UHGV virus genome: UHGV-1882081 | Source: a virus | Reading direction: 5' to 3' (one strand) | DNA length: 42,643 bases | Shown here: one piece after another, positions 1,650 through 41,313 of the stretch | Layout: each line of letters begins with the position of its first letter | Numbering within the stretch: position 1 is the first letter of the stretch | The notes under the pieces: model-generated | What the model saw: the letters and a program-made list of their open reading frames with translations, nothing else | Told to the model about the DNA's origin: nothing | Database searches by the model: none | Program-made: the position numbers and the translations under genes

Positions 1650-1664
1650 TTAGTATAAAAAAGC
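1650..1664. repeat. 15-bp lambda att core, prophage/host junction (attR, bio side)
   Basis: ttagtataaaaaagc = reverse complement of the lambda core GCTTTTTTATACTAA; identical copy at 41299-41313. Flank 1641-1649 tcgctcaag matches the attB arm CTTGAGCG. Confidence 0.9.
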
Positions 1665-1812
1665 TGAACGTGAAACATTAAAAACCATTAATATCAATGT
1701 GTTACAATATCTTTAGTCTAAAAAATAGACTGCATAATGCTACAAAACACAACATATCCAGTCACTATGAATCAACCACTTAGATGGTATTAGTGACCTG
1801 TAACAGAGCATT
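1665..1812 (+). promoter_or_regulatory. attP P-arm (Int arm-type, IHF, Xis, Fis binding region), lambda-like
   Basis: Reads ...cagtcactatgaatcaaccacttagatggtattagtgacctgtaacaga..., recognisably the lambda P-arm in reverse complement with a few differences. Confidence 0.8.
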
Positions 1813-1854
1813 AGCGCAAGGTGATTTTTTGTCTTCTTGCGCTAATTTTTTGTC
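1813..1854 (+). terminator. tI terminator / sib retroregulator hairpin (lambda-like)
   Basis: attagcgcaag ... cttgcgctaat inverted repeat followed by tttttt; same orientation as int, as expected for tI beyond attP. Confidence 0.7.
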
Positions 1855-1951
1855 ATAAAAACATGTCGCACTCCAGAGAAGCACAAAGCCTTGCAATCCA
1901 GTGCAAAGCTTTGTGTACCTTAGTTTTGTTTCATAGGTAACTCTGTGTTAA

Positions 1952-2254
1952 CTACGATGCAAGAATCCATACCAATAAGCATCCGATAATTGGGAAAGAA
2001 AAATCCAATAGACTTCCCACATCCCACACGCGCGGATCAAAACCGCCCCACCACGGCATATTCATACGCTTGCCGTGCCCGAACATTTCAATCCAGCGAT
2101 ATTCTGCCTGGGTGTGTTCACGCGCAATGAAGAACGTACAACCAGCTATCGCACCGTAAACCCAGTTTCCGGTAAAAAGACCAACCAGAACTTGTGCGAC
2201 AACAGCGCAAAGTGCGTGAAGAATTGGTGTTATATCAACTTCTATATTCATCAT
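1952..2254 (-). CDS. hypothetical small membrane protein (two hydrophobic segments) between tailspike gene and attR
   Basis: 100-aa ORF with hydrophobic stretches ILHALCAVVAQVLVGLFTGNWVYGAIAGCTFFIA and FSFPIIGCLLVWILAS; occupies the position of O-antigen conversion genes in P22-like phages; no homolog recognised. Confidence 0.4.
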   Translation of the reverse strand: MMNIEVDITPILHALCAVVAQVLVGLFTGNWVYGAIAGCTFFIAREHTQAEYRWIEMFGHGKRMNMPWWGGFDPRVWDVGSLLDFSFPIIGCLLVWILAS

Positions 2255-2330
2255 AAATAACTCATTCCATTTTCACAAATAAGCCGCCAACAAGAAGACG
2301 GCATTAACATTAAAATAATTATATATGATG

Positions 2331-4322
2331 CTATTCCTCAATACCTAACCTGCTTGAAACCTCCGGCATAACAGTAACCTGAAGGGTTTTTGATGAATCT
2401 GTGTTTTTAATTGCTATGCTTATATTGTCAGAAGTGCTGTTATTGTTTGACACTGTTATAGAGTTTGCATCCACCCCGAGTTTCGAATAAGCATCAGCAA
2501 AACTAAGACCAACACTTCCACCAACAACTCTATATGAACCATCAATTCTGAATGACGATATATTGTTATTGCTAACATCTCTAATTAGAACCCATATAGA
2601 AACACCCCTGAAAACAAGGCTTGCCCCTGATGGTATTTGAAGTGATACAGTTCCTGTGGAACCCGGGGGGATACTGCCAGTATATTTAGTTCCGTGCAGA
2701 TATTTCCCCGGTAGATCTAAATACGATGTATCTGGCTGCAATAAATTATGTATATGTCTGCTATCTATGCTTCCAGACAGAACCATAGAATCATTTCCAT
2801 ATTCAATTATCCTTCCACCATCGTTACTTATTGTAAGTAATCCTTTGTTTCCTTTATTGTTTCTAACAGTTATATCAGAAGAATCCAGGCGGACAATTGA
2901 TATATTTTTTTCTGTTCCATGACAATAATTTGATGAAATTTCACCTGTAACAAGTGACGTACATAAAATGTCTGAACTTCCATCACTGTCGCCAGTAATA
3001 GTGTTACAGGAAATTAATGCACCATATACCAGACCTGTCGGAGATTCTCCAAATTGCTCTATAGTAATCCGTTTTGTGGTATTTGCTGATATGGTTATAT
3101 TATGAACATCGTCAGTTTGCGATGTTACTTTGATCCTTGATGAAACGGTATTTCCAGAAATAGTAACATTACTTGTATCATCCACCCATAAATATGACGA
3201 AAACGTATTACATGATATGACTGAGTTACTCACCATTGAGTTCTCAAGCTCACATGAACCATAGCTATTGTTATGGTCATAATTTCCTATAATCCTTACA
3301 AATCCATTCTGGTTAATGAAGTTGTATGATGTTGCATTTTGTCCGCCATAAGTTGAGTTATGCGATGTTTCAGCATTTGTAACGCCTATATGTTGAAAAT
3401 GACCGGCATTTACAGAATCAGGAGCAACTGATGTACACCCTATTATTTTTGTATTTTTGACAGTTCTTGAATTAGGGTCATTCTCCAAATAATAGTTTTT
3501 TGCAACAAATGCCGTAGAGTAAAAGAAACCTTCAAATCTATTAAATAAAATCTGAATATCGTCATAATCTCTTTGGTCTTCATTTGCATAGCAATAAAAT
3601 GCTCTTGAAGACTCGGAGTAATCCTTGCATTTCTGAACACCAGATAAAAGTGATCGTATTCTGCTAGATTTTATTCTAAATCCGTTGTGAATTAACGTTG
3701 CATCACCAACCAATGTTATTGGCTTAAGCAATTCAACCTTATCAAAAACAAATTCACCACCATAAAATCCAAGTATAGCCCCTTCTGGTACTGCATTAAT
3801 AGCATTTTGAATTGCTACAGTATCATCTGTTATGCCGTCTCCTTTTGCACCAAAATCACTAACACTAATGTGCTCGGCATTTTTTTGATGCTGCGTCCTT
3901 CTTATTGACAAGGTGAATGGTTGTTTTACTGCTATTAATGCATCTCCAAGATCATCACCTGAACTTGCTAACTCCTGCCTTAACTGATCCGGGTCATACT
4001 TCAGCACATTTGGAAAATAGAACTGCTGCGCACCATACGCATCATAAACAGCCATAGAATGGCCTTGCACAGTTACGAACTTGGCAATCTGTCCGTTATA
4101 TACCGGATATCCAGCAGCGTTAATGATGATTGGCTGTTCAACAGGAACGTGAGAGGCGTCTTCGTTCTCCACATAAACCTGAATCTGGTTTTCAGGGTTT
4201 ACCGGGTCAGTGTCAATTTTACCGATATAAATTTTGCCATTGGCTACGGCTTTAAAAGAACGAGCCATAGTGAAGAGTTGCGAAGGCATCGATACGATCA
4301 CATTGGCTGTAATGTCTGTCAT
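2331..4322 (-). CDS. tailspike protein: P22/HK620-like N-terminal head-binding domain fused to a right-handed beta-helix polysaccharide depolymerase domain
   Basis: N-terminus [55 protein letters not shown]... matches P22 gp9/HK620 tailspike head-binding domain; downstream [19 protein letters not shown] is the pectate-lyase-3-type motif of depolymerases. The 3' two-thirds is markedly AT-rich. Confidence 0.9.
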
Positions 4323-4380
4323 TTAATTTGCTCCAGATACAAGGAATCGCCGAAGCATGGCTACGGTGAATTTTGGGCAT

Positions 4381-4404
4381 AAAAAAACCCAGCCGAAGCT
4401 GGGT
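4381..4404 (-). terminator. rho-independent terminator downstream of ant
   Basis: On the minus strand acccagc-ttcg-gctgggt hairpin followed by a 7-T run (plus strand aaaaaaacccagccgaagctgggt). Confidence 0.7.
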
Positions 4405-4422
4405 CGTTGCGTTGGTTATCTG

Positions 4423-5352
4423 TCAGTAGTTATGTACTGAAGGAGGTAATTCTTTATTCTTAAGTCTCATCCATGCGGAAAGATTCGTTGGTCCGTCTGG
4501 CTCATTGATATCAACATCTCGTGTGTGGTTTATTAAAACGTCTCTCGCCATTCCGATAACATACGAGAATTCATGACCGTAGTCGTAGCATCTGCCGGAA
4601 TAGTTCGATTGAATTTGTTTTAATGCCGGATACAGTTCGCGGAATAATGCCTGTGAGCGGTTGGCATAATCCCATAGCCATACAAGGCTGTTTGCTTCTT
4701 TTGCAGAAAGCTCGTTGGTTTTCTTCTCTTGTTTGCCAATGAACTCACCTTCAAGTGGAACTCGAGCTGCAAGTGACAGTGCTTCTGTAAACTGCTCCTC
4801 ACTGATTTCTTTGTACGAACATCCAAAATGGGATTTCAGTGACGACCACATGGTGATCATCGCCTTAGCCTGCTTTTCTTTTGGTAGAGACTGACCGCGA
4901 CTCATGACGAGTTGTTTAATGGCTTCCTGCTGTTCAGTGGTGATTTTACCCGGCAACGCCTTTTTAGCTTTGCGTTGGTTAACTACATCGCCTTTAGTCC
5001 AGTACTCGTAGAGCACATCGTCACACTCTTCCTGATACTGGATTACCTTGTCGCGGATTTCAGGGCGGACTTTGTTTGGACTGATGGTTTGCAGCCAGCC
5101 AGCAAGTTTGCGAAGTGCCAAACAAATAATCTCACGGCACTGTTCATCACCAGGAAGCTGCATTGTGATTTTCACAATGGAGGTTTTAAACCGTTGCTTT
5201 ATTTTCGTAAACTGTGAAGCCCAATCCATACCCATACCTTCAACGATAGGTTTCATTGGGGTGTACGGCTCACCGTTGTGATTGACGACATAAAGCTCTG
5301 CGCCGTGGAATGGCACGTTGATAGTAGATACTGCTGTTGCTATACTTTTCAT
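4423..5352 (-). CDS. ant: antirepressor Ant (P22 immI)
   Basis: 309-aa [47 protein letters not shown]...; N-terminal AntA/KilAC-type domain; position between arc and tailspike as in P22. Confidence 0.85.
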
Positions 5353-5418
5353 GTCAGTTTTTCCTCAAAATTTACTGGCGATTTAAGCCCGAGCTACTCG
5401 CAATAGCTTGGGCTTTAC

Positions 5419-5565
5419 TCATTCTGGACAAACAATTCCATCCTTAGCTACTGACTCCTTTAGTCTCCTCAATACCTCATTACTGAACGACCGATCATCC
5501 TTTTTCGCGGACTGCTCCAAAGCCTTTTCCAGCCATTCTGGCATCCTTAATGTCTTAACTTTCAT
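5419..5565 (-). CDS. arc: Arc-like ribbon-helix-helix repressor (48 aa); absent from the ORF track because under 60 aa
   Basis: Manual translation MKVKTLRMPEWLEKALEQSAKKDDRSFSNEVLRRLKESVAKDGIVCPE; AAGGAG RBS 5 nt upstream of ATG; Arc/MetJ-like pattern; immediately upstream of ant and divergent from mnt. Confidence 0.75.
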   Translation of the reverse strand: MKVKTLRMPEWLEKALEQSAKKDDRSFSNEVLRRLKESVAKDGIVCPE

Positions 5566-5669
5566 TTTTGCTCCTTTGTATGTGGTACGCATACATAGTA
5601 TTTAGGTACGCATTGATAGTCAATAGATACCTACATATCCTGTGGTAAATAATTATTCAGGATGCGCCG
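5566..5669. promoter_or_regulatory. immI divergent control region (Pant toward arc/ant, Pmnt toward mnt, Arc/Mnt operators)
   Basis: On the minus strand TTGACT-17 bp-TACTAT followed by inverted repeat tgtatg N7 cataca; motif ggtacgcat occurs twice. Confidence 0.55.
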
Positions 5670-5921
5670 ATGTCTGATCGTAAGTACAAAAACCCTCAAG
5701 TGAATCTGAGGCTTCCTGTAGAGATAAAGGAACGTCTTATTGAGCTGGCTGAGGCTAATTCTCGTTCATTAAATGCTGAGATGGTAGCAGCACTTGAGGC
5801 ATGGACTGAAAAAAATAAACATATTCAAGCACTAGATATTGCAACTATAGCATCGCGGTTGATAGAGCTTGAGCATGAGGTTGAGAAGTTAAAATGTATG
5901 CATGGCAACGGTGAAAAATGA
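5670..5921 (+). CDS. mnt: Mnt-like ribbon-helix-helix repressor (maintenance of lysogeny)
   Basis: 83-aa ORF, same length as P22 Mnt, N-terminal RHH pattern NLRLPVEIKERLIELAEANSRSLNAEMVAAL; divergent from arc-ant. Confidence 0.75.
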   Translation: MSDRKYKNPQVNLRLPVEIKERLIELAEANSRSLNAEMVAALEAWTEKNKHIQALDIATIASRLIELEHEVEKLKCMHGNGEK

Positions 5922-6232
5922 AACGCATCGCTATTTTGTTAATATTGTTCTTCTCTACAATAGTTTGCGCCAAACAAAAATCAGATAATGGCGATCTTAA
6001 AGGCCTGCAAGAACTCATGATAACTTCGAAATTTGCTGGCATGTGCGGCACAATCAAACAAATGGCAACATTTCAAGAATCAACAAAAATGCCTGGCGGA
6101 GATGAGTTCTTACAGCGTTTTCTGACCACAGAGCAAGCAAGACTTGGAATGAATCCACAGGAGTTTCTTGAAGCATGCCAGAAGTCAATTTCAGCTTATA
6201 CCAATTATTACAATCTAACTTCTGATAAATAA
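5918..6232 (+). CDS. hypothetical secreted protein (cleavable signal peptide), moron
   Basis: 104-aa ORF MKRIAILLILFFSTIVCAKQ...; start overlaps the mnt stop (ATGA); AT-rich. Confidence 0.6.
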   Translation: MKRIAILLILFFSTIVCAKQKSDNGDLKGLQELMITSKFAGMCGTIKQMATFQESTKMPGGDEFLQRFLTTEQARLGMNPQEFLEACQKSISAYTNYYNLTSDK

Positions 6233-6257
6233 TAGAAAGGATTTTATAAATAACTTT

Positions 6258-6743
6258 ATGAAAAAATCACTATTAATTATCCCGCTTCTGCTGGCTGGAT
6301 GCGCAAAAGTAAGTGACTACCAAGCAAGTTGCGAACAACGCTATCCAAAGCTTAGTGATATGGCTAATTGCCTTGATGCCAGCGTGAAGAACGACTCACG
6401 CATGGCATCAGCACCAACACCTAAGCTGTATGTCCTTGCTGCGAAGATGCTCGGGCAAGGTGTCGATGAAGGCAAGATAAGTGACGCACAGGCAAGACTT
6501 GAGCTTCAGAATCTTTATGTTCAATTACAAAGCCAAGAACAAGCCCAACAAATAGCGCAAAGCCAAGCATTCCAGCAGGCTTTATTGAATTATCAGGCTG
6601 TAAACACAATGCAAGCGATCGAGCAAAAAGCGCGCCAGCCTGTTATAACTCAACCTTACCCAACACGCGTTGACACATATACAAACTGCAATTCAGGATT
6701 TGGAAACACCGTCACATGCAACAGTAGCAGCAACATTAGATAA
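6258..6743 (+). CDS. hypothetical lipoprotein (lipobox LLAGC), Gln-rich, moron
   Basis: 161-aa ORF MKKSLLIIPLLLAGCAKVSDY...; signal peptidase II lipobox; Q-rich central segment; ends 3 bp before the convergent gp16 stop. Confidence 0.6.
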   Translation: MKKSLLIIPLLLAGCAKVSDYQASCEQRYPKLSDMANCLDASVKNDSRMASAPTPKLYVLAAKMLGQGVDEGKISDAQARLELQNLYVQLQSQEQAQQIAQSQAFQQALLNYQAVNTMQAIEQKARQPVITQPYPTRVDTYTNCNSGFGNTVTCNSSSNIR

Positions 6744-6745
6744 AG

Positions 6746-8860
6746 CTATTCATATTCATTCATACCGCTTAACGAGGCGACAATACCAGCTCTCGACAAG
6801 CGATTGAATTCATCGCTACCAATAGCATCGCGTATTGCTTTTACGGCGGCTTTATTTGCCATAAATCTGCGTTCCGCCGCCGCTAATGCTTCTTTACTTC
6901 CGCCAGCTCTTACTGCTTTCGTGGCTTCCTGAACTGCTTTCTCTATCGCATATCGACCGCTACGCGTGGTGGCAATTTTAGATACAGCACCTTTTAACCC
7001 GGCGCCAACTAAAGCACCTGCGGCAGCGCCTGCAATGCCCCCTCCTGCTCCACCAACAATGGCACCTGATGTTGAGTTGGCAATTGCATTTAACACTGTT
7101 GATGTGACGTTGGATAAACCGGCATCCAGATCGCGTAGTACATTGGCGGTTCTCCCTGTTCTTTCAATATACTGCTGAGGTTTCACTGCTGCTCTTGCAA
7201 GAGTGCCATATGCATCTGCAATTCTTCCAAGCTCTGAGGAATATCGGCTAATGGCTTTTACATTTTGTGGAGTGAGTATCTCTGCGATATGGTTAATTCC
7301 TGCTGCATCAGCTTTGCCACCACGTACACCATGCGAGATAGCATCTTGCAACATTGATGATATAGCAGGAACACGCTCTGATTCTGGCAGCGCGCGGATC
7401 ATAGAATGGAACCCAGCAGGACCATTAAGACCTTTAGCTGACGATGATTGAAGGGATTTTACTCCATTCGTAATCAGTGCATCTGTTGCCAAATCACGCC
7501 CGAAAACAGACTCTGCACTCTCTTGTGCTGATAACCTCGCTTTAGACAGATCATTAGCTTTCTGCCAGTCATCAAGAAATCCGCCGTTTTCCGCCATTGT
7601 GCGCATATCATCAGTAATTGCCCGGCGTATTTCCCCTGCTCTCCTTGCCGCATTTGCCTCTCCGCTACGCTTATATTTTTGCTCCGCATCAGCAAATTTC
7701 GCTCTCCATGCTTTCATGCCATCAAATGTTACTCCACCTTGATTGTTTGCCTGAACAAACTGTTTCATTTCAGGAGTAAGCGGTATGCCAGCAGATCGCT
7801 CTGCCTGAATAACGGCATTACCATTTAGCATTCTTGCTTTTTGATTTGGCATTGTTGACCGCACGTCATCCCATGCCGCGCGCTCGGCATCCTTCATCTG
7901 ATCAAGATTTTGAAGAATCCTTTGTTTTATAGCCGCACTTTTTTCTGATGCCGTTCCAGATGCGGCCCCAAATTCATCAAGGTTTCGACTTAACTTTGAT
8001 GATATTTCGTTAAATGCTGCCTGATGGGCATCCTGAACAATTCCTGGTGTTGATGCCAATGCGCCTTCGGCTTGTGCAATTCCACGACTTCCAGATCGCA
8101 TTCCTGGTGTTAATGCGTTTATATCAATTCCAGCAGACTCAGCCGCTTTTGCTACATCTTCGGACACATTAGCGGCCTGACTGGCAATTGACTGACGCCC
8201 TGCACCTGACTTTGCCATCCTGGAAACATCATTAGCAGAATTCAGTGCTGCACCACCAAGAGCCTGTGAAACCCTTGGCGCAATAACGCGCCCGGCACCT
8301 GAAAGAACGCCTTGAGCACCAATATTGATACCACCGTTAATGGCAGCATTTTGTGCAAAGTCGCCCTCCTGATTTGCAGCATCAGCAAGAGAACCTGCAA
8401 TCATGTTTCCTGCGGAACCGATATCTCCAGCGAGCTTTGCTGGCGCTCCAGCAGCTTTTGCCGCTGTGCCAATTGGCAGGAGATACCCACCAATTGTTTC
8501 ACCGGCTTGCGCGTAAGGGTCTGTCGGTCGATCGACAGGGCGATAAACATCATCCAAAACCTTTGGGCCACCAAGCCCCTGGCTGATAGCATTAATCAGA
8601 CTTGCGCCACCCTGCAATACGTCAAATGGTATGTTTACCAGACCACGACCAGCCTGTTCTGCAATTTGCCCGGCACTTTGACCACCAGTGAGCCAGTCAG
8701 TAGCTTTTCCTACCAGAGATTGTTCTTCTGGCTGCGATTGGTTTTGAGTGGATTGATCATCAGAAGACAGCATCTGAGCAATGCGACGTGCTCCCTCAGT
8801 ATCGCCGGCAGCATCAGCATTCCTTAACGCCGTCATCAACTGTTCACGACTATAGGCCAT
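6746..8860 (-). CDS. ejection (E) protein, P22 gp16-like
   Basis: 704-aa ORF, last gene of the virion operon, Gly/Ala-rich; order gp7-gp20-gp16 conserved. Confidence 0.75.
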
Positions 8861-10131
8861 TACTGCCCTCCGAGATATTTGTTAATCAGGTCATCATCAG
8901 AAAGCTGCTGTTGAGACGGTTGTATGTCCTTCCCGTATTTCTGTTGCATACGTTTCTGAGCCATCTCAGTGGTTTTTATGATTGTTTTGATAGCTGCTCT
9001 GGCTGATTTTTCAGACTGATTTGGGGACAAACTACCAATAGCATCCATTACCTTTTGCCCCTCGGCATTACTTAAAGCCCCCATCCCTTTCATCTGCTGA
9101 ATGCCAGATAAGAATCCCTGAGATTTCAGTGTGTCAACCAGAGTTTCTGTATCAGCAGCCTCTGTTCCTGGAATGAATCTACTCGATAGTGGGTTTAGGT
9201 TTGTTCCGAAATATCCCGTGAAACCCGGGCTATTAAGAACTTTTGTAGCCGTCTCTATCGTTCTGGAAAGATTATCCATTCCAGAGTTGTACGCATCAGC
9301 CTTATCTCGCTTTGCCTGCTCCATAGCTTGCTGATTCTGCAATCTCTTGTCCTGCAATTCAGCAAGTTTTAAGGCATTAGTTTCATTTGCGATGAGTCTG
9401 TCGTATTTCTTGTCCTCTAATTCCATCCGACGAAGATTGACATTTTGTTGCGCAATATTGTTGCTTGCCCACCCTCTGGCATTTGTCATGTCATTATTAC
9501 GGATTGTTTCGTTAATTTTTTGCTGATCCTGCTGGCGACCAACCATCTTGTCCTGAACATTGAAGTAATCAATCGGACCAAGAGCAGCCATTCCAAGGTG
9601 ATCAACAAACTCACCAAATCCTGAAGGATTCTGCCGATACATCTGAGCAACGCTGTTAGGGTCAACACCGACGCGCGCCAGTGCCTTGGCGTTGTTTTGC
9701 AGCCATGATTGCATTGCTTCTGGAGACGAGGCCGCAAGGCGTGCGCCAGCCGCTAAGGTGCCGATAGAATTGCGCTGGTCTTCGTCTGCCCACTTCATAC
9801 CAGACTGAATCTTCTCTAATTGACGAGGATATTTGGTCATCAGATCTCGCACCTGCTGTCGATCACCTGACTGGATGGCTGCCGCATATTCTTTTTGGAA
9901 TGCAGCATCCGCTTCCTGTTGCTTTGCGGCTTTATATGTTTGAGCAACACTACCAAGTCCCTGCAATGCCTGAAGGCCGATGTTATTGCGACCTGAACGC
10001 TCCATTTCGTTGTTCTGGCGAATATAGGCCAACGCCTCACTTACATCACTTGCCTTTGGCGCATTTGAGTTTTGCCCACCGATACCAGCAAGAAAGCCGC
10101 CTGAGTTGATTCCTTGTTGCCAAGTAGCCAT
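8860..10131 (-). CDS. ejection protein, P22 gp20-like
   Basis: 423-aa ORF between the gp7-like and gp16-like genes; coiled-coil/Q-rich. Confidence 0.75.
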
Positions 10132-10140
10132 ATTCCCACC

Positions 10141-32830: not shown

Positions 32831-32839
32831 GACGGAGGA

Positions 32840-32986: not shown

Positions 32987-33258
32987 CGGTTAACAGCTTC
33001 CTTGCAGAAAAAACACACTGGCAAGATGCTGGAGGGAAATATTCTGGATGGCTTGAAAGCATGGGGTTTGAATATCAACCTGATGAAGGTTGGTGGAGCC
33101 TTATAGCTGTAACGCCTGAGACAATAGAATGCTTCGTTAAATACTCAAACGACGATGACTATAAAAACCAGGTAGATTCTGCGATAGAAAGATATAAAAG
33201 AAAATCATTCAGCCACGAAATATCATCAGTTCTTGATTTCATAGAAGTCTTCAAATAA
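32968..33258 (+). CDS. hypothetical protein
   Basis: 96-aa ORF (possibly starting at MTVNSF...); acidic, AT-rich; no recognised homolog. Confidence 0.4.
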   Translation: MPYAHMTVNSFLAEKTHWQDAGGKYSGWLESMGFEYQPDEGWWSLIAVTPETIECFVKYSNDDDYKNQVDSAIERYKRKSFSHEISSVLDFIEVFK

Positions 33259-33341
33259 GCCGCTAAGCGCGGCTTTACCGCATACCAATAATGCTTCACC
33301 AGAGGCATTTTCGTTATGCAATCAAACAGAAGGAGCATCCT

Positions 33342-33512
33342 ATGCAACAGTTCGCTATTGCAGGGGCGGCATCGGTTCGCCCTTTCAACCCGATTTTATC
33401 GGTGCAGCATTCACGAAAAAATATTTTAACCGGAGCAGACTTTAAACAACCAAGAATGAAAAGTTTGCTAGAAAAGCTTTGGGATATTTTGAAACAACAA
33501 GGCCGTCCATGA
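33342..33512 (+). CDS. CIII-like protein (FtsH/HflB inhibitor family)
   Basis: GGAG RBS; MQQFAIAGAASVRPFNPILSVQHSRKNILTGADFKQPRMKSLLEKLWDILKQQGRP resembles lambda CIII (MQYAIAG..., amphipathic helix ...LLERL...). Confidence 0.6.
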   Translation: MQQFAIAGAASVRPFNPILSVQHSRKNILTGADFKQPRMKSLLEKLWDILKQQGRP

Positions 33513-33679
33513 GTTTTACAGATAACTGGTCAGACGAAGAATTCATTCGTCAGATGAAAGAATTAATCGGTAACGAAGGAGATATTCATGTCACTTGCAA
33601 CCACAGTGAAGGAGAGCAAGTTACAGAGACGCATGTACACGCAGCAGGCGTTAATGTATCGCCAGAAGGGAGATCGTGA
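33509..33679 (+). CDS. hypothetical small protein (kil position)
   Basis: MSFTDNWSDEEFIRQMKELIGNEGDIHVTCNHSEGEQ...; start overlaps cIII-like stop (ATGA). Confidence 0.4.
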   Translation: MSFTDNWSDEEFIRQMKELIGNEGDIHVTCNHSEGEQVTETHVHAAGVNVSPEGRS

Positions 33680-33766
33680 AGGTGTTCGCGTATTTTTAAA
33701 TGCGGCAAAGACTGAAGTATTAAATCAGCGTTATTTCCTTGGGCCATGTCCATTCTGAGGTGAATT

Positions 33767-34474
33767 ATGGATTTGAATAAATTCGATGAGCCATTCAGCC
33801 CCGAAGATATCGAATGGCGAATACAGCAAAGCGGTAAAACACGCGATGGCAAGGTGTGGGCTATGGTGCTGGCTTATGTCACGAACCGGGCAATCATGAA
33901 ACGCCTGGACGATGTTTGCGGCAAAGCAGGATGGCGCAATGAATACCGCGATATTCCCAACAACGGCGGAGTTGAATGCGGCATATCAATCAAGATTGAT
34001 TCCGAATGGGTAACCAAATGGGATGCTGCTGAAAACACGCAGGTAGAAGCCGTCAAAGGTGGTCGTTCCGGTGCAATGAAGCGCGCTGCCGTTCAGTGGG
34101 GAATCGGTCGGTATCTGTATAACCTTGAGGAAGGTTTCGCACAAACATCTCTCGATAAAAAGCAGGGGTGGCACAGGGCAAAACTGAAGGATGGAACAGG
34201 ATTTTACTGGCTCCCTCCATCGCTTCCGGGATGGGCAATCCCAGCATCAGATAACAAACCATCACCAGAAAATACCAACCAGAAATCTCCATCGGTTGAC
34301 TGCGAACAAATCCTGAAAGACTTCAGCGATTATGCGTCAACAGAAACTGACAAGAAAAAACTCATCGAGCGTTATCAGCGTGACTGGCAATTAATGGCTG
34401 GCAATGAGGATGCGCAGGCTAAATGCGTTCAGGTAATGAACATCAGAGTTAACGAACTAAAACAGGCGGCATAA
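33767..34474 (+). CDS. single-strand annealing recombinase, Rad52/Sak-like core
   Basis: 235-aa ORF with Rad52-family signature VWAMVLAYVTNRAIMKRLDDVCGKAGWRNEY; immediately followed by an ssb gene. Confidence 0.65.
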   Translation: MDLNKFDEPFSPEDIEWRIQQSGKTRDGKVWAMVLAYVTNRAIMKRLDDVCGKAGWRNEYRDIPNNGGVECGISIKIDSEWVTKWDAAENTQVEAVKGGRSGAMKRAAVQWGIGRYLYNLEEGFAQTSLDKKQGWHRAKLKDGTGFYWLPPSLPGWAIPASDNKPSPENTNQKSPSVDCEQILKDFSDYASTETDKKKLIERYQRDWQLMAGNEDAQAKCVQVMNIRVNELKQAA

Positions 34475-34981
34475 ATGGCAAGCAGAGGCGTAAATAAGGT
34501 GATTATCCTTGGTCGGGTAGGACAAGACCCGGAAGTTCGATACTCACCATCAGGAACAGCGTTCGCTAACCTGACAATAGCCACGTCAGAACAATGGCGA
34601 GATAAAAATACTGGCGAGCAAAAGGAATTGACTGAATGGCATCGTGTTGCTGTATCCGGGAAACTGGCTGAGGTCGTGGGGCAGTATGTGAAAAAAGGTG
34701 ATCAGATTTATTTCGAGGGAATGCTGAGAACCAGAAAGTGGAAAGACCAGTCAGGGCAAGACCGTTACACAACCGAGGTTCATGTCGGAATTAATGGCGT
34801 GATGCAAATGCTTGGCGGCATTGGCGACAGCAAACAACAAGCAGCCAGCAGGCAATCACAGAAGCCACAGCAGCAATCATCACCAGCACAACACAACGAA
34901 CCTCCGATGGATTTTGACGACGATATACCCTTTGCACCAGTAACTCTCCCCTTCCCTCGTCACGCTATTCACGCAATTTAA
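34475..34981 (+). CDS. ssb: single-stranded DNA-binding protein (SSB) with 15-aa extension beyond the DDDIPF tail
   Basis: [60 protein letters not shown]... OB-fold core, Gln/Ser-rich linker, then MDFDDDIPF followed by [15 protein letters not shown] before the stop. Confidence 0.85.
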
Positions 34982-34994
34982 TCAGGAGAAAATC

Positions 34995-35230
34995 ATGCCA
35001 GTGCCTCGGTATGGTGCGGATGACCCGCGCCGCTGTTCCGGCAATTCCGTATCGGAGGTGCTGGATAAATTCAGAAAAAACTACGATCGGATAATGTCGC
35101 TACCGCAGGAAACGAAAGAGGAAAAGGAATTTCGCCATTGCATATGGCTTGCAGAGAAAGAAGAACGCGAGCGAATTTACCAGACATCAATCCGACCATT
35201 CCGCAAAGCCACATATACCCACTTCCCTGA
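34995..35230 (+). CDS. hypothetical protein, N-terminal part (truncated by N-run)
   Basis: MPVPRYGADDPRRCSGNSVSEVLDKFRKNYDRIMSLPQETKEEKEFRHCIWLAEKEERERIYQ... runs into the gap. Confidence 0.4.
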
Positions 35231-35311
35231 NNNNNNNNNNNNNNNNNNNNNNNNNNNNNNNNNNNNNNNNNNNNNNNNNNNNNNNNNNNNNNNNNNNNNN
35301 NNNNNNNNNNN
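35231..35311. other. run of 81 N (assembly gap or masked sequence)
   Basis: Literal n characters. Confidence 0.95.
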
Positions 35312-35372
35312 CCGCGCCTGCGTAATTACCGCTCACGCTATGGCGCTATCAGTAATGACTGAGGAATTAACA

Positions 35373-35663
35373 ATGAAAACAATGAAGCTAAATATCGACC
35401 TCGGCAAATACGTTATTACCGGAACCAAACACGACCTGATTCTTAGTGAAAGAGGAATTATCAAAGAAGGTGAGAATGCAGGGAAAGAAACACTAAGTCG
35501 TATCGGTTATTACAGCAAGTTTGAGCATCTGGTTAAAGAGTTATGCAACCGTGAAATTCTGTTATCTCAAGCGCGGACGCTACAGGATATTCAGCAGCAT
35601 ATCGAGACTTTAGGTGTGTCACTTAGCATGGCCGTTGACCAGTTCGTGGAGAGTAAATCATGA
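35373..35663 (+). CDS. hypothetical protein
   Basis: GAGG RBS; [57 protein letters not shown]... (96 aa). Confidence 0.5.
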
Positions 35664-35824
35664 GAGGACTTGCATACAATCCCGGCATTCTTCCGGCAGA
35701 AATGATTATTCGCCAACGCGTAAAGCCAATGCCATCGAGAGAGGAATTACTTAAGAGAAATTCTTTTCCATCAGTGAATCAAAACAAATATCTGAATGCG
35801 ATGTTGCGGAGTGGGAAGAAATGA
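35660..35824 (+). CDS. possible small ORF (54 aa)
   Basis: [54 protein letters not shown]; start and stop both overlap neighbours (ATGA). Confidence 0.35.
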
Positions 35825-36213
35825 AACAAATGTCACTAATTGAGATGGATGGTTTTCTGAAAGGTAAATGCATCCCACGAGATTTAAAGGTTAACGAAAC
35901 AAACGCTGAATATCTGGTGCGTAAATTTGCTGAAGCGGAGGCCAAGTGCGCGGCGCTGGCTGCGGAGAATGCGGCACTGAAGAAGTTCTGCAAAGACGCT
36001 GCATTCGATGCCGATTACGAAGCAGAGCTAGGTATGGAGCGTGGTGGATTCAGTGATGCACTTAACGATATCGAAACCACAGCCACCGACGCTTTCTTGG
36101 CTGAAGTACGGGCGCAGGGCGTGGAGATGTTTGCTGACCATCTGTTGTGCCCAAACCTTGATGACACTATCCGTGACTTTGCTGCCCAGCTTCGCAAAGG
36201 AGTGCAGTCATGA
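35821..36213 (+). CDS. hypothetical protein
   Basis: 130-aa [58 protein letters not shown]...; translationally coupled to neighbours. Confidence 0.55.
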
Positions 36214-36572
36214 AAAGAGAGCCGAAAAAAACTGTGAAGATTAAGCGTTTCCGCTACTCACTTGATTGGTTCACCGTTGATGACGTTGAGTGCGAAGTCG
36301 GCAATGGATTCAGCTACGAAATGCAGTTTCGTCTCGGGGCATGGTATCTGATGGGGAAATATTACGATTACAAGGCTGAGCAGTGGTACGAGGATTATAG
36401 AAAATCATTCCAGCTGGAATGCCCAGCGGAAGCCGTTATTGCTCTTGGTAATAGCCTGACGAAGTTCAGCAGACTTCACGACTGTGACCACCTGACTGAA
36501 CACCTCGCTAAACTGCTGAAAGGCGTTGCTTCGCGCATTGCTATTAGTGAAGCAGAAGGAGGCAACCAGTGA
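36210..36572 (+). CDS. hypothetical protein
   Basis: 120-aa [58 protein letters not shown]... Confidence 0.55.
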   Translation: MKREPKKTVKIKRFRYSLDWFTVDDVECEVGNGFSYEMQFRLGAWYLMGKYYDYKAEQWYEDYRKSFQLECPAEAVIALGNSLTKFSRLHDCDHLTEHLAKLLKGVASRIAISEAEGGNQ

Positions 36573-37147
36573 GCAAGATTGATTATCAAAAGCTTCGTGA
36601 AATCGCTGAAAAAACAAAAATTGCTGGTGAAGCACCTGTAATGCCTTTCGATCAGCGAATTAATGCGCTTAACGATTTTATGAAGCACTTTTCGCCAGAT
36701 ATCGCGCTGGCATTGTTGGATGAACTGGAAAGAAACCAGCAATACATCAAACGCCGCGACCAGGAGAACGAGGATATTGCGCTAACGGTAGGGAAGCTGC
36801 GTGTTGAGCTGGAAGCCGCAGAGAAGCGCAACGCAAATTACAAAGCGAGAATGCATACATCCGACCGGTTCAAAGAACTGGACCTATTAATCGGGAAAAA
36901 CATTCTGGTCATGCAGGCTGCCATTATCGAATGGCAATCGACTGGCGACGCTAAAAGCGGACTGGCATGGATTTATAACACACTGTTTGGTCCAGGCGAA
37001 TTGCCGGACGAATCTGAGAAAGATGCTCAGGCCTACTTTAATCGCAAATATGCACCGATTGACGAAAAGCTCATGGAGCTTCACAAGTGGTTTTGGGAAC
37101 AAAGTGAAGCCGAGCGCGCCGCTGGCATTCGCATCAAAGGAGAGTGA
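36569..37147 (+). CDS. hypothetical early protein (coiled-coil)
   Basis: 192-aa ORF MSKIDYQKLREIAEKTKIAGEAPVMPFDQRINALNDFMKHFSPDIALALLDELERNQQ...; carries the 19-nt motif shared with 39509-39853. Confidence 0.55.
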   Translation: MSKIDYQKLREIAEKTKIAGEAPVMPFDQRINALNDFMKHFSPDIALALLDELERNQQYIKRRDQENEDIALTVGKLRVELEAAEKRNANYKARMHTSDRFKELDLLIGKNILVMQAAIIEWQSTGDAKSGLAWIYNTLFGPGELPDESEKDAQAYFNRKYAPIDEKLMELHKWFWEQSEAERAAGIRIKGE

Positions 37148-37148
37148 G

Positions 37149-37904
37149 ATGATTCACTACCACGGTGGGCCTATTACTCCTGATACGTGCGCAATGAGAG
37201 CATGGAAAGGGCGACATGCGTTTATCAGTTTTGCGCATTCAGGCCAGATCAATCTCGCGGCTGAATACTGTCAGTCGTTCGCGCTGGACAACGGTGCATT
37301 CACCGCCTGGAAAGCAGCTGGCAAAAACAAAATCGACTGGAGCGATTACTACGAGTTTGTTGCTCGCTGGAAGAATCACCCAGGATTCGATTTTGCCATT
37401 ATCCCGGATATTATTGATGGCGGAGAGGAGGAAAATGATGCGCTTCTGAATGAGTGGCCTCACGGAAAACTAGCTGGCGTTCCAGTGTGGCACATGAATG
37501 AAAGTGACGCGCGATTTATTCATTTGTGCAATGAGTTTCCGCGAGTGGCTATCGGTAGTTGTGGCGACTATGACGTAAAGCGCCCAACTCTTGCGGTAGC
37601 CAGAATGAAAGACCTGATTCGTCACATTGTTGATGGGCATGGTCAGCCGGTTACGAAACTACATGGATTGCGCATGTTAAATCCGCTGATATTCACAAAA
37701 TTACCCTTAGCCAGCGCAGATAGTACGAACGTCGCTCGAAACATCGGTATTGATAAAGCCTGGTCTGGGGCTTATGCACCTGCAAGTAAAGAGACACGCG
37801 CAGCATTAATGGTAGAACGGATTGAGGCACACAATAGCCCTGGTTCTCTTGCGTATTGTGAACAACGCGACCGCTTTGAAATGCAATTGCAACTAGCAGT
37901 TTAA
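37149..37904 (+). CDS. hypothetical protein (251 aa), largest uncharacterised early-left gene
   Basis: MIHYHGGPITPDTCAMRAWKGRHAFISFAHSGQINLAAEYCQSFALDNGAFTAWKAAGKNKIDWSDYYEFVARWKNHPGFDFAIIPDIIDGGEEEND...; start taken at internal Met of the 305-aa ORF; no function assignable by eye. Confidence 0.55.
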   Translation: MIHYHGGPITPDTCAMRAWKGRHAFISFAHSGQINLAAEYCQSFALDNGAFTAWKAAGKNKIDWSDYYEFVARWKNHPGFDFAIIPDIIDGGEEENDALLNEWPHGKLAGVPVWHMNESDARFIHLCNEFPRVAIGSCGDYDVKRPTLAVARMKDLIRHIVDGHGQPVTKLHGLRMLNPLIFTKLPLASADSTNVARNIGIDKAWSGAYAPASKETRAALMVERIEAHNSPGSLAYCEQRDRFEMQLQLAV

Positions 37905-37914
37905 GGACTAACAA

Positions 37915-38544
37915 ATGACCACTATTACCAAAGAACGTATTGAATTGTTCATTAAAAATCCGCTTGAAAACGGGCTTACTCGTGGCGAACAAATGGAACT
38001 GGCACGAATTGCACTGGCATCACTGGAACGCGAACTGATTCGCCACGAGCATGCCAAATGGTCTGACTCCACATTTGGCTGCGTTGGCCCCATTGGTCCA
38101 CTGAAACACCTCTCAAAAGAGGCTCTGGAAGCCGCAGCCGAACCAGACGATCTCAGCGAGTGGGCTGATATGCAGTTCCTGTTGTGGGATGCACAGCGCC
38201 GTGCTGGCATCAGCGATGCTGAAATTACCGCTGCTATGGAAGATAAATTGAAGATCAACATGGAGCGCCAGTGGCCTGAACCAAAAGATGGTGAGCCTCG
38301 CTTGCACATTAAAGAACGCGGCAACTCTCCGGTAATTCCGGATGGTTGGATAAGCTGTAGTGAGCGAATGCCGGAAGAAACGGGTGACATTATTGTTGTT
38401 TCTGATGGCATTGTAATGTCAGGGATTTCTTATTCTCGTCGTGACGGGTTCTATATAACCGCATTGGAGTACGACGACGATGAGCCAATTGGCGGTGTAA
38501 CTCACTGGATGCCGCTACCGGAACCGCCGCAGGAGGTGAAGTGA
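37915..38544 (+). CDS. phage protein with C-terminal DUF551-type segment (W..PLPEPP)
   Basis: 209-aa ORF; C-terminus ...DGWISCSERMPEETGDIIVV...GVTHWMPLPEPPQEV resembles the DUF551 signature common in lambdoid prophages. Confidence 0.6.
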   Translation: MTTITKERIELFIKNPLENGLTRGEQMELARIALASLERELIRHEHAKWSDSTFGCVGPIGPLKHLSKEALEAAAEPDDLSEWADMQFLLWDAQRRAGISDAEITAAMEDKLKINMERQWPEPKDGEPRLHIKERGNSPVIPDGWISCSERMPEETGDIIVVSDGIVMSGISYSRRDGFYITALEYDDDEPIGGVTHWMPLPEPPQEVK

Positions 38545-38822
38545 TGGACTCCTTCGCGAAATATACGATTATTGACTGGATAGCCTTCCTTCAGGTTTTG
38601 CTCATCTGGTTTTATATGGCTTACAGGAGTGGGCAGTGGATTGTCAACATGGCCTGTAGCAGGGGATGGCGTTGGTGGAACCGAAAGAATAAAAAAGCAC
38701 TGGCATTGGATTCGTTTTACGAAGCATTCAATCTTAACAGCCTTCAGCCTGGTTCTGTCATTGTAGTCACCACTCAAAGCGGCATGACCATTCAGATTCA
38801 TAAACCAAAAGAGGAAAAATGA
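38541..38822 (+). CDS. hypothetical protein with one hydrophobic segment
   Basis: 93-aa ORF MMDSFAKYTIIDWIAFLQVLLIWFYMAYRSGQWIVNMA... Confidence 0.45.
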   Translation: MMDSFAKYTIIDWIAFLQVLLIWFYMAYRSGQWIVNMACSRGWRWWNRKNKKALALDSFYEAFNLNSLQPGSVIVVTTQSGMTIQIHKPKEEK

Positions 38823-38967
38823 TGTGGCCTATATGTGTTAATTGCGGACGGATGTGCCTATCTGGATGGTGCCGAAAGTGCGACAAATGCACGAAGCAAA
38901 GACAATAACAATCCTCGCACTCGCGGGGATTTCTTTTATCTGAACTCGCTACGGCGAGTTTTGTTTT

Positions 38968-39279
38968 ATGGAGATGATTATGGCCTGTTCAACATTCAAC
39001 CCTTTAACGTTACAGAAATACCAGCCAGACCATGAAGATTTATGCTCACTGTGTGGCGGAAATCATGGTAAAGCCGCCATGATCGAATGTAAGGACAAAA
39101 TCCACATATGCCTTAATTGCGTTGATGTCCTCGTTGATATCAAAAATGAAAGAGAAGATAAAAAGCGTAGCGAGGCTATTCGCGCCTTAGATTCATGGAT
39201 GCGAGATGGGTATAGTGCTGCGCAAATTTATGACTTCGCCATTTCAAAAGGCGAAATACCAGGTGTGCGAATCGAATAA
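38968..39279 (+). CDS. hypothetical Cys-rich protein (two CxxC pairs)
   Basis: 103-aa ORF with CSLCGG ... CLNC spacing. Confidence 0.45.
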   Translation: MEMIMACSTFNPLTLQKYQPDHEDLCSLCGGNHGKAAMIECKDKIHICLNCVDVLVDIKNEREDKKRSEAIRALDSWMRDGYSAAQIYDFAISKGEIPGVRIE

Positions 39280-39299
39280 GAAGCGCACTCAAGCATCTT

Positions 39300-39482
39300 T
39301 TGGAGAAATCACAGATGCACTTCCGAGTCACAGGTGAATGGAATGGAGAACCATTCAACAGAGTTATCGAAGCAGAGAACATCAACGACTGCTATGACCA
39401 CTGGATGCTGTGGGCGCAGATAGCACATGCAGACGTAACCAATATTCGAATTGAAGAACTGAAAGAACACCAAGCCGCCTGA
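39300..39482 (+). CDS. hypothetical small protein
   Basis: 60-aa ORF (possibly starting at MHFRVTGEW...) ending inside a terminator hairpin. Confidence 0.4.
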   Translation: MEKSQMHFRVTGEWNGEPFNRVIEAENINDCYDHWMLWAQIAHADVTNIRIEELKEHQAA

Positions 39483-39495
39483 TGGCGGTTTTTTA
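39474..39495 (+). terminator. rho-independent terminator-like hairpin
   Basis: ccgcc-tgat-ggcgg followed by ttttttatt. Confidence 0.65.
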
Positions 39496-39508
39496 TTGGA
39501 GACAAGAA

Positions 39509-39853
39509 ATGTCAGATTTGGCTATGAAGGTTTTGAAATGGCAATCGACTGGCGATGTCGGCATCAGTAGCGCAACTCTTGCCTCAATCGCATGTGGACT
39601 GAAAAAGAATATCTATGGTCATCACTTCGGCGCTCCACATGACGCAGCCGATTTCAGACGATGCGTTGCACTTGTTGAGCAGATTCCAGAAATCAGGGAT
39701 TCATTCGACAAGGTTGCAAAGCGCGTTCCGGCATTCAAAGACATCCTCAACGAATGGGATTCCCTCGTTGCTCTGTTGAAGTCTGAAATGAAGACACACG
39801 GAAACAAAGCACCAGAGACTTACAGAAGAATTAGCGAGTTACGCAAGGACTAA
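39509..39853 (+). CDS. hypothetical protein upstream of xis
   Basis: GGAGA RBS; MSDLAMKVLKWQSTGDVGISSATLASIACGLKKNIYGHHFGAPHDAADFRRCVALVEQIPE... (114 aa). Confidence 0.55.
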   Translation: MSDLAMKVLKWQSTGDVGISSATLASIACGLKKNIYGHHFGAPHDAADFRRCVALVEQIPEIRDSFDKVAKRVPAFKDILNEWDSLVALLKSEMKTHGNKAPETYRRISELRKD

Positions 39854-39958
39854 CCACAGCCTCACACTCGATGAGGCCTGTTCATTTCTCAAGATATCCA
39901 GACCTACCATTGCTGCATCAATGCAGCTTTTCTTGCGTGTAATTGCGGAGACTTTGCG

Positions 39959-40177
39959 ATGTACTTGACTCTTCAGGAGTGGAACGCTCGCCAGCGACGC
40001 CCAAGAAGCCTTGAAACAGTTCGTCGATGGGTGCGCGAATGCAGGATATTCCCTCCTCCGGTTAAGGATGGAAGAGAGTATCTGTTCCACGAATCAGCGG
40101 TAAAGGTTGACTTAAATCGACCAATAACAGGTAGCCTTTTGAAGAGGATCAGAAATGGGAAGAAGGCGAAGTCATGA
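39959..40177 (+). CDS. xis: excisionase Xis (lambda-type)
   Basis: 72-aa ORF MYLTLQEWNARQRRPRSLETVRRWVRECRIFPPPVKDGREYLFHESAVKVDLNRPITGSLLKRIRNGKKAKS matches lambda Xis; overlaps int start. Confidence 0.95.
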   Translation: MYLTLQEWNARQRRPRSLETVRRWVRECRIFPPPVKDGREYLFHESAVKVDLNRPITGSLLKRIRNGKKAKS

Positions 40178-41225
40178 GCGCCGGGATTTACCCCCTAACC
40201 TTTATATAAGAAACAATGGATATTACTGCTACAGGGACCCAAGGACGGGTAAAGAGTTTGGATTAGGCCGAGACAGGAGGATAGCAATCACTGAAGCAAT
40301 ACAGGCCAACATTGAGTTATTTTCAGGACACAAACACAAGCCTCTGACAGCGAGAATCAACAGTGATAATTCTGTTACGTTACATTCATGGCTTGATCGC
40401 TACGAAAAAATCCTCGCCAGCAGAGGAATCAAGCAGAAGACACTTATAAATTACATGAGCAAAATTAAAGCAATAAGGAGGGGTCTGCCTGATGCTCCAC
40501 TTGAAGACATCACCACAAAAGAAATTGCGGCAATGCTCAATGGATACATAGACGAGGGCAAGGCGGCGTCAGCCAAGTTAATCAGATCAACACTGAGCGA
40601 TGCATTCCGAGAGGCAATAGCTGAAGGACATATAACAATAAACCCGGTCGCTGCCACTCGCGCAGCAAAATCAGAGGTAAGGAGATCAAGACTTACGGCT
40701 GACGAATACCTGAAAATTTATCAAGCAGCAGAATCATCACCATGTTGGCTTAGACTTGCAATGGAACTGGCTGTTGTTACCGGGCAGCGTGTTGGTGATT
40801 TATGCGAAATGAAGTGGTCTGATATCGTAGATGGCTATCTTTATGTCGAGCAAAGCAAAACCGGCGTAAAAATTGCCATCCCAACAACATTGCATGTTGA
40901 TGCTCTTGGGATATCAATGAAGGAAACACTTGATAAATGCAAAGAGATTCTTGGCGGAGAAACCATAATTGCATCTACTCGTCGTGAACCGCTTTCATCC
41001 GGCACAGTATCAAGGTATTTTATGCGCGCACGAAAAGCATCAGGTCTTTCCTTCGAAGGGGATCCGCCTACCTTTCACGAGTTGCGCAGCTTGTCTGCAA
41101 GACTCTATGAGAAGCAGATAAGCGATAAGTTTGCTCAACATCTTCTCGGGCATAAGTCGGACACCATGGCATCACAGTATCGTGATGACAGAGGCAGGGA
41201 GTGGGACAAAATTGAAATCAAATAA
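40155..41225 (+). CDS. int: integrase Int (lambda tyrosine recombinase)
   Basis: 356-aa ORF MGRRRSHERRDLPPNLYIRNNGYYCYRDPRTGKEFGLGRDRRIAITEAIQANIELFSGHKH... matches lambda Int in sequence and length. Confidence 0.97.
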   Translation: MGRRRSHERRDLPPNLYIRNNGYYCYRDPRTGKEFGLGRDRRIAITEAIQANIELFSGHKHKPLTARINSDNSVTLHSWLDRYEKILASRGIKQKTLINYMSKIKAIRRGLPDAPLEDITTKEIAAMLNGYIDEGKAASAKLIRSTLSDAFREAIAEGHITINPVAATRAAKSEVRRSRLTADEYLKIYQAAESSPCWLRLAMELAVVTGQRVGDLCEMKWSDIVDGYLYVEQSKTGVKIAIPTTLHVDALGISMKETLDKCKEILGGETIIASTRREPLSSGTVSRYFMRARKASGLSFEGDPPTFHELRSLSARLYEKQISDKFAQHLLGHKSDTMASQYRDDRGREWDKIEIK

Positions 41226-41298
41226 TGATTTTATTTTGACTGATAGTGACCTGTTCGTTGCAACAAATTGATAAGCAATGCTTTTTTATAATGCCAAC
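41226..41298 (+). promoter_or_regulatory. attP P'-arm (Int arm-type sites P'1-P'3, IHF H' site)
   Basis: atgattttattttgactgatagtgacctgttcgttgcaacaaattgataagcaatgcttttttataatgccaactt is the lambda P' arm in reverse complement. Confidence 0.9.
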
Positions 41299-41313
41299 TT
41301 AGTATAAAAAAGC
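41299..41313. repeat. 15-bp lambda att core, prophage/host junction (attL, gal side)
   Basis: ttagtataaaaaagc identical to 1650-1664; followed by aggc (attB arm GCCTGCTTTTTTATACTAA in reverse complement). Confidence 0.9.

Follow-up and report, generated by a model that had tools for sequence, protein, structure and literature searches.

The design of a P22-like phage with the integration system of phage lambda, or integrated at its site, is already known from phage JEP4, Escherichia coli A3 and phage phiHS3. The subject of this study is a further element of this kind, carried between the host genes ybhB and ybhC in the viral genome UHGV-1882081, a 42,643-nucleotide (nt) stretch of DNA that was analysed as a whole (the window; w denotes a window position). 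The element is very probably an apparently complete, integrated P22-like (Lederbergvirus-type) podovirus prophage with a lambda-type int-xis-attP cassette at attB-lambda in E. coli, a reading that concerns its identity and the mechanism of its integration. It is an ordinary example of a mosaic prophage, and its exact combination of modules is new to phage and complete-genome collections.

JEP4 (MT740315, Lederbergvirus) combines a P22-like virion and replication system with a lambda-type integrase, as the present element does (98.6% nt identity; 355/356 amino acids (aa) of Int). It also shares the P-arm allele of the attachment site (95%) and, at 90-98%, the helicase, the nin genes and the small gene beside att. 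It departs from our element in the tailspike receptor domain, immI, Q and parts of the ea region, and its coat/portal module gives no nucleotide match over w13500-18700. The prophage of E. coli A3/A26 (NZ_CP028771 1590250-1629352) is likewise P22-like, lies between ybhC and ybhB and possesses lambda-type int/xis, the same TnpB flank and procapsid genes at 96% identity. Its cI/cro/cII, however, are of lambda type; the early-left genes and the tailspike also differ, Q is followed by a tRNA-Asn, and the coat gene is frameshifted. For phiHS3, a P22-like temperate phage, integration upstream of ybhC, excision and induction by mitomycin C have been demonstrated by experiment, and by this description it resembles our element as a P22-like phage at the ybhC site (bioRxiv 10.64898/2026.05.19.726188).

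More distant relatives account for the individual modules. Lambda (NC_001416) shares int-xis-attP, the attB site, the orientation, Q, pR'-tR', S, R, ninI/H/G/E/B and ral, whereas its virion, replication (O 35% aa; no P), immunity, N, exo-bet-gam and b-region genes are absent here. P22 (AF217253) shares the gene order, the virion set, gp18/gp12 replication, erf/abc2, the concept of immI and c2/cro/operators. It differs in int and att (Int 28%; the P22 site is thrW), N (35% aa to P22 gp24), c1/cII (24%), the virion sequence (about 79% nt), lysozyme (R, 25%), gtrABC, which is missing here, and the receptor domain of the tailspike. The immunity region of phage 21 (lambda imm21, OM418625) and Kapi1 (MT813197) agrees with ours in cI and Cro (100%) and at 79/80 positions of OR. 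Kapi1 further shares N, nun, the helicase and a 1.5-kb ea block at 99.5%, but uses a different integrase and integration site, and its head module is of the CUS-3/HK620 type.

Attachment sites and the integration cassette

The 15-bp lambda core GCTTTTTTATACTAA occurs on the minus strand in exactly two copies, at w1650-1664 and w41299-41313 (exact-match count; none expected by chance). These are the two positions named by an earlier reading of the window made without database searches (the sequence-only reading), which had proposed integration at attB-lambda with intact att repeats; both copies are exact and there are no others. The host flanks are ybhB on the bio side (w1083-1559, plus strand; NCBIfam equivalog NF007609, E 1.4e-103) and ybhC on the gal side (w41360-42643, plus strand; NCBIfam equivalog NF007822, E 9e-221). 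In-silico excision, joining w1365-1664 to w41314-41613, restores the empty site: the product matches E. coli Nissle 1917, ATCC 11775 and others without interruption at 600/600 positions. These precise junctions and the restored empty site are established and bear out the proposed integration. The insert measures 39,649 bp with one core copy counted, in agreement with the earlier estimate of about 39.6 kb between ybhB and ybhC, and includes 236 N; the true size of the prophage is about 39.4 kb. The rejoined 600-nt ybhB-ybhC sequence is present in one piece in 3,492 of 5,426 complete E. coli genomes, so attB-lambda may be occupied or rearranged in roughly one-third of them (a rough count with all causes pooled).

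The arms beside the cores, described earlier as recognisable lambda P and P' arms, are indeed of this type. The attR core (O; w1650-1664, minus strand) is bordered leftward by the B' arm (about w1640-1649) and on the other side by the P arm of attP with the tI/sib hairpin (w1665-1919, minus strand); at the opposite end, the P' arm and the attL core occupy w41226-41313 (minus strand; core at w41299-41313), with the B arm to the right. Identity with lambda is 100% from the core through the P' arm to the 3' end of int. The P arm aligns with lambda 27742-27471 at 88.7% over 274 nt, and with JEP4 at 95%. It retains P1, H1 (WATCAANNNNTTR), P2, X1, the core of H2 (IHF consensus) and C, as well as the tI/sib hairpin with its trailing U-run (w1809-1851), and carries two changes in X2 relative to lambda. 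The positions of the attP sites are taken from the annotation of the lambda record and from the established map of lambda attP.

The integration genes are equally close to those of lambda. xis (w39959-40177, plus strand; PF07825, E 1e-40) overlaps the start of int (w40155-41225, plus strand), the product of which has the arm-binding (PF09003) and catalytic (PF00589) domains. Int is identical to lambda Int at 352/356 residues (98.9% aa) and contains all six catalytic residues (R212, K235, H308, R311, H333 and Y342); Xis is identical at 70/72 residues (97.2%), and the xis-int-P' stretch shows 97.8% nt identity to lambda. The recombinase, the duplicated core, the arms and Xis together appear to constitute a lambda-type site-specific integration module. 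Cassettes of at least 97.4% identity are found in 42 phage records with several virion types, including lambda, 434, HK97, HK106, JEP4, Huey and vB_EcoP-720R6. In the proposed mechanism, Int and IHF would recombine the 15-bp core of attP with attB between ybhB and ybhC, producing attL (B-O-P', beside int and ybhC) and attR (P-O-B', beside the tailspike end and ybhB) in the orientation of the lambda prophage.

Virion and immunity genes

About 65 open reading frames (ORFs) were scanned against PHROG, Pfam and NCBIfam. The virion cluster displays P22 synteny (PHROG), with the order terS-terL-portal-scaffold-coat-gp4-gp10-gp26-gp14-gp7-gp20-gp16, and its genes are equal in length to their homologues; these identities and this gene order are established. 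The cluster lies on the minus strand and comprises the P22-type procapsid module (coat, scaffold, portal, terL and terS, w14313-20670; PHROG hits), gp26 (tail needle with knob), gp10 and gp4 (w11269-14129; phrog_1030, 578 and 637), and the ejection proteins gp16, gp20 and gp7 together with gp14 (w6746-11272; phrog_770, 2534, 598 and 651; 95-97% nt to Louie). The procapsid genes share 96-98% nt identity with coliphages IME10 and Louie and 79% with P22, and have no nucleotide match to the head types of Sf6, CUS-3 or HK620. Amino acid identity to P22 ranges from 37 to 93% across the virion, reaching 73% in coat, 78% in portal, 92% in terL and 93% in gp10. The 22-mer equivalent to pac (w20376-20397) is identical in IME10 and Louie and has seven mismatches against that of P22, which is itself absent from the window. 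The tailspike gene (w2331-4322, minus strand; phrog_20231 over its full length, E 2e-255) encodes a P22-type head-binding domain (PF09008, residues 1-113, E 3e-65) and a pectate-lyase-like beta-helix receptor domain (PF12708). Virion synteny, the head-binding domain of the tailspike and the lambdoid order of early genes with immC all point to a P22-like phage, and podovirus morphology is predicted from the genes.

The immC region (w29636-31250, both strands, including OL/pL) contains a cI gene (w30314-30964, plus strand) with 216/216 residues identical to phage 21 (lambda imm21) and Kapi1, and a cro gene (w30048-30233, minus strand) with 61/61 residues identical to the same two phages. OR (w30234-30313) matches phage 21 (lambda imm21)/Kapi1 at 79/80 positions and P22 at 75/80, and the OL region matches imm21 at 281/286 positions where aligned. 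cII (w29636-29932, minus strand) is of the 21/Kapi1 type, with only 24% identity to P22 c1; neither it nor N, which is of the same type, is related to the P22 genes c1 and gp24. The boxB sites of nutR (about w30005-30024) and nutL (w31151-31170) are both phi21-type, and no lambda boxB is present in the prophage. The P22 genes c2 and cro are closely related to cI and cro here (93.5 and 98.4% aa). By these comparisons immC is of phage 21 type, and the immC of P22 is close to it only in repressor, Cro and operators. The sequence-only reading had classed immC, replication and all virion genes as P22-type; this holds for replication (gp18 and gp12, 76 and 90% aa) and for the virion genes, but not for immC. 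A literature search on phage 21 and P22 sharing immunity found nothing, so cross-immunity between the two phages would follow from their sequences only.

The second immunity region, immI, lies between gene 16 and the tailspike gene in the order mnt-arc-ant, as in P22. It consists of an mnt-like gene (w5670-5921, plus strand; Arc/Mnt-family ribbon-helix-helix, 30% aa to P22 Mnt), an arc-like gene (w5419-5592, minus strand; Arc-like family, 31% aa to P22 Arc) and ant (w4423-5352, minus strand; phrog_245 Ant, E 1e-97; 61% aa to P22). The P22-type label given to this region earlier is apt for the gene order and fails for the sequence: in Arc and Mnt it resembles P22 at only about 30%, and CUS-3 comes closest (92% nt). 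A search for sar antisense RNA yielded no Rfam family at gathering score anywhere in the window.

These modules suggest how the prophage would operate. Lysogeny would be maintained by the phage-21-type cI at P22/21-type operators and backed by the immI antirepressor circuit (mnt, arc and ant). Under SOS induction, self-cleavage of cI would be followed by the action of a phi21-type N at phi21-type nut sites, turning on the early operons, which would serve O/DnaB-type replication from the iterons in the O gene, recombination by erf-ssb-abc2 and excision by xis-int. The lambda-type Q with pR'-qut-tR' would then bring about S-R-Rz/Rz1 lysis (holin-endolysin-spanin), P22-type headful packaging and the production of virion proteins.

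Mosaic structure, assembly and completeness

Module boundaries were mapped by local blastn against lambda, P22, IME10, Kapi1, HK620, lambda imm21, JEP4, Louie, Sf6, CUS-3 and the E. coli A3 prophage. Lambda-like DNA (at least 88% identity) totals about 7 kb (18%) and is made up of the P arm, w21965-25882, ninE, ninB, ral, a short non-coding stretch, orf55 and xis-int-P'. The joints between lambda-like and other DNA fall at w1919, 21965, 25882, 26921 and 39928. Two of the sharp boundaries noted earlier, xis/ea (w39928) and ninB/helicase (w26921), are real. There is none between Q and nin, as the lambda-like block is continuous over w21965-25882, and the boundary placed between Rz and terS is instead a late breakpoint inside Rz. 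A 60-mer spanning the ea/xis joint is absent from GTDB representative genomes and occurs in one other contig in IMG/VR.

The unbroken lambda-like block runs from the 5' part of Rz to ninF at 97.4% identity. Similarity to lambda stops at w25882 and restarts over w26299-26921, covering ninE and ninB. The lysis cassette (w21776-22993, minus strand) comprises S, R and a hybrid Rz with an embedded Rz1, which is intact and has its lipobox. S and R are identical to lambda at 106/107 (99.1%) and 155/158 residues (98.1%), while Rz, lambda-like in its 5' part and P22-like in its 3' part, shares 62.5% with lambda Rz and 89% with P22 gp15. Beyond Rz, the part of w21112-21775 up to w21469 is 97% conserved in HK620, JEP4 and Louie, and 92% in an unannotated stretch of P22. 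The pR'-qut-6S-tR' interval with orf-64 (w22994-23669, minus strand) is identical to lambda 44510-45185 at 676/676 positions, and the late antiterminator Q (w23670-24293, minus strand) at 206/207 residues (99.5%). The nin region (w24290-26909, minus strand) contains ninI, ninH, ninG, ninF, ninX, ninE and ninB. NinI is 100% identical to lambda and NinH, NinG and NinB are 98-98.6% identical, ninF is nearer to P22, ninX is not in lambda, and ninC and ninD are missing. The near-identity to lambda proposed for these genes is therefore upheld for Int, Xis, Q, pR'/6S/tR', S, R and NinI/H/G/B, and has to be withdrawn for Rz, ninF and ninX, as well as for the missing ninC and ninD.

Within this block, the 2.2 kb at w22780-25000 (lambda 43196-45418), covering ninI, Q, pR'-tR', orf-64 and the start of S, differ from lambda by a single base. 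Identity falls stepwise on either side of this stretch, the difference reaching about 2% in the direction of ninG and as much as about 20% in that of Rz, and the near-identity looks like the outcome of a recent homologous exchange. Contamination with lambda control DNA was considered as a source of the stretch and rejected because the identity declines gradually to either side of it along one contiguous sequence.

Three runs of N interrupt the early region: w28553-28625 (73 nt) at the O/helicase overlap, w31724-31805 (82 nt) in nun and w35231-35311 (81 nt) in abc2. In relatives their places are taken by 5 nt (Kapi1 and JEP4), 8 nt (Kapi1 and JEP4) and 7 nt (E. coli F11), respectively. We rejected the notion that the runs mask real sequence of equal length, as their flanks abut within 5-8 nt in relatives. 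With flanks colinear and only 5, 8 and 7 nt missing, the runs are best taken as scaffold gaps whose length is arbitrary. They overshoot by about 70 nt each, an excess that is not a multiple of three, and a literal reading would frameshift three genes; inserting the Kapi1 bases restores the nun frame and the helicase start. The N-runs in the scaffold are not to be taken as true sequence length.

Function, inducibility and host range are predicted from the identities. The prophage is probably still inducible, a judgement kept below full confidence because three genes are not readable through the gaps. Several observations weigh against a complete and correctly assembled prophage. The three scaffold gaps hide the helicase start, nun and abc2 from direct reading; the changes in the P arm relative to lambda are concentrated between X2 and H2 (about w1665-1740); between Rz and the DUF2560 gene, a stretch of about 660 bp (w21112-21775) lacks any convincing ORF, and the 91-aa ORF that PHROG matches there looks spurious; where several lambdoid prophages reside together, a scaffolder could in principle join pieces of different ones; and neither half of the element is covered beyond 80% by any record in the phage or complete E. 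coli collections, so the exact mosaic is without independent confirmation.

The first three of these observations would fit a defective (cryptic) prophage, correctly integrated but no longer able to excise or to form particles, and so would the frameshifted coat gene of the related A3 prophage, which shows that decay is common at attB-lambda. We regard such a defect as unlikely. The readable essential genes are full length against their homologues in the plaque-forming phages IME10, Louie, Kapi1, JEP4 and lambda; both att sites are intact, the P-arm allele being common to the isolated phage JEP4; and the pac equivalent is that of IME10 and Louie. The earlier statement that the genes of the element are intact thus stands for the readable essential genes, and not where the N-runs interrupt the sequence, at the helicase start and in nun and abc2, which cannot be read directly.

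The remaining observations bear on an assembly chimera, in which the N-runs would mark joins between segments of two or more lambdoid prophages living in one strain, and the mosaic would not be real in the cell. Three N-runs do fall within 7 kb of the early region, their lengths of 73-82 nt against the 5-8 nt missing in relatives are typical of scaffolder-estimated gaps, and the exact mosaic is not found elsewhere. A chimera is nevertheless very unlikely, given that the gap-cut genes are colinear and in frame in Kapi1 and JEP4 (first and second gaps), in E. coli F11 (third gap) and in HK022 nun (second gap), that identity to the bridging relatives is similar on each side of every gap (96-99%), and that all five joints listed above are clear of N-runs. 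The concern that the N-runs hide misassembly joins is met by the same facts: the flanks are colinear in complete genomes, and no lambda/non-lambda joint touches an N-run. The N-runs show no sign of a misjoin, though only reads from the strain would prove contiguity.

A recent direct recombinant of lambda itself and Salmonella phage P22, to which the 2.2 kb with one base difference and the roughly 7 kb at 88% or more identity to lambda might point, is scarcely credible, as the virion genes are about 79% identical to P22 against 96-98% to IME10 and Louie, the int cassette has nearer relatives in 2B8, JEP4, 434 and HK97 (98.6-98.8%) than in lambda (97.8%), counterparts of the lysis, Q and nin modules are present at 90-97% in Sf6, CUS-3, IME10, Kapi1 and HK620 (S-R at 96-97% in Sf6, CUS-3 and IME10; Q at 96-97% in HK620 and Kapi1; ninG-I at 97% in Sf6), and the immunity is of phage 21 type. 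The label of a lambda/P22 mosaic is accurate in so far as the element is P22-like with a lambda-type int cassette, and misleading as to parentage: by these comparisons, the modules are drawn from a common lambdoid pool and not from a cross of lambda and P22.

Early and accessory genes

Replication genes of the integrated P22-like prophage consist of an O/gp18-type initiator (w28626-29455, minus strand; phrog_345, E 6e-106; 76% aa to P22 gp18) and a DnaB-type replicative helicase of the gp12 type (w27184-28628, minus strand; phrog_19, E 2e-134), the first codons of which lie inside the N-run at w28553-28625. A breakpoint at w29002 makes the O gene a hybrid in its own right, and four iterons of roughly 20 bp are located inside the gene at w29020-29106. 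The helicase shares 99.6% aa identity with Kapi1 and 90% with P22 gp12, and 98% nt identity with Kapi1, JEP4 and CUS-3.

The phi21/Kapi1-type N-like antiterminator (w31281-31586, plus strand; phrog_271, E 8e-31) is 79% identical in amino acids to phage 21 N; an exact-protein look-up with the 111-aa N ORF gave no match. It is followed by nun (w31589-32001, plus strand; phrog_5632), an HK022-type transcription arrest/exclusion factor gene cut by the second N-run. With 8 nt inserted from Kapi1, the nun ORF encodes 112 aa, 110 of which are identical to the HK022 nun region. The region homologous to HK022 already begins in the 3' third of the N-like gene; upstream of its own nun, HK022 has an N-like stretch with 57% identity. 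The nun gene stands directly behind the phi21-type N both here and in Kapi1, where it is annotated as hypothetical. HK022 Nun is a transcription-arrest factor that excludes lambda.

Further early-left genes (ral, DUF7446, orf96, cIII, a small recombination ORF, erf, ssb and abc2; w32205-35230, plus strand) extend to the N-run at w35231-35311, which cuts abc2. An exact look-up with the DUF7446 protein returned many lambdoid prophages and never this mosaic. The ea region (w35313-39853, plus strand) encodes DUF5405, DUF2737-like, Ead/Ea22-like, DUF4752, lambda orf55-like and orf123 proteins. It also includes a 251-aa protein of putative TGT/DpdA fold (w37149-37904, plus strand), conserved and labelled 'hypothetical' in more than 7,700 homologues, and beside it a dATP/dGTP pyrophosphohydrolase-DUF551 gene (w37915-38544, plus strand). 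No deazaguanine synthesis genes are found near the TGT/DpdA-fold gene. If anything about the element is unusual, it is these accessory genes and not the mosaic. It is conceivable, if rather doubtful, that the TGT/DpdA-fold protein could insert host-made preQ0 into phage DNA, and that Nun would arrest lambda-type superinfecting phages while sparing the prophage's own phi21-type nut sites.

A 100-aa membrane protein with two hydrophobic segments is encoded beside attR in a lysogenic-conversion position (w1952-2254, minus strand; phrog_1443, E 7e-55), and two secreted or lipoprotein morons occupy the sieA position (w5918-6743, plus strand; phrog_19844 and phrog_6067): a secreted protein of 104 aa with a signal peptide and a lipoprotein of 161 aa with an LLAGC lipobox. 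These three small envelope proteins take the usual places of lysogenic-conversion and superinfection-exclusion genes in P22-like phages; PADLOC detects no defence-system protein among ten accessory ORFs, these morons included. ARAGORN finds no tRNAs over the whole window, and Rfam no other curated RNA. None of the 11 reference genomes matches the receptor part of the tailspike (w2331-3980) at the nucleotide level; together with the adjacent membrane moron, this part recurs at 97-98% in 10 complete E. coli genomes. The lambda P arm is missing from 7 of these 10, which indicates that tailspike and moron travel as a unit independent of the integration cassette. The ybhB-attR-moron-tailspike junction is identical in three complete genomes.

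On the host side (w1-1082), a tnpB of the IS200/IS605 family (RNA-guided endonuclease; NF040570, E 7e-96) starts at w974 on the minus strand and runs off the left end of the window, and about 108 bp of the end of the tnpB element adjoin the start of ybhB. tnpB also flanks ybhB in E. coli A3, and no tnpA is visible within the window.

The element provides one more case of the lambda int-xis-attP cassette moving between lambdoid phages with different virions, with breakpoints mapped here to a few bases. It also flags a P22-like prophage, probably inducible and probably generalised or laterally transducing, beside the bio and gal regions of its host.

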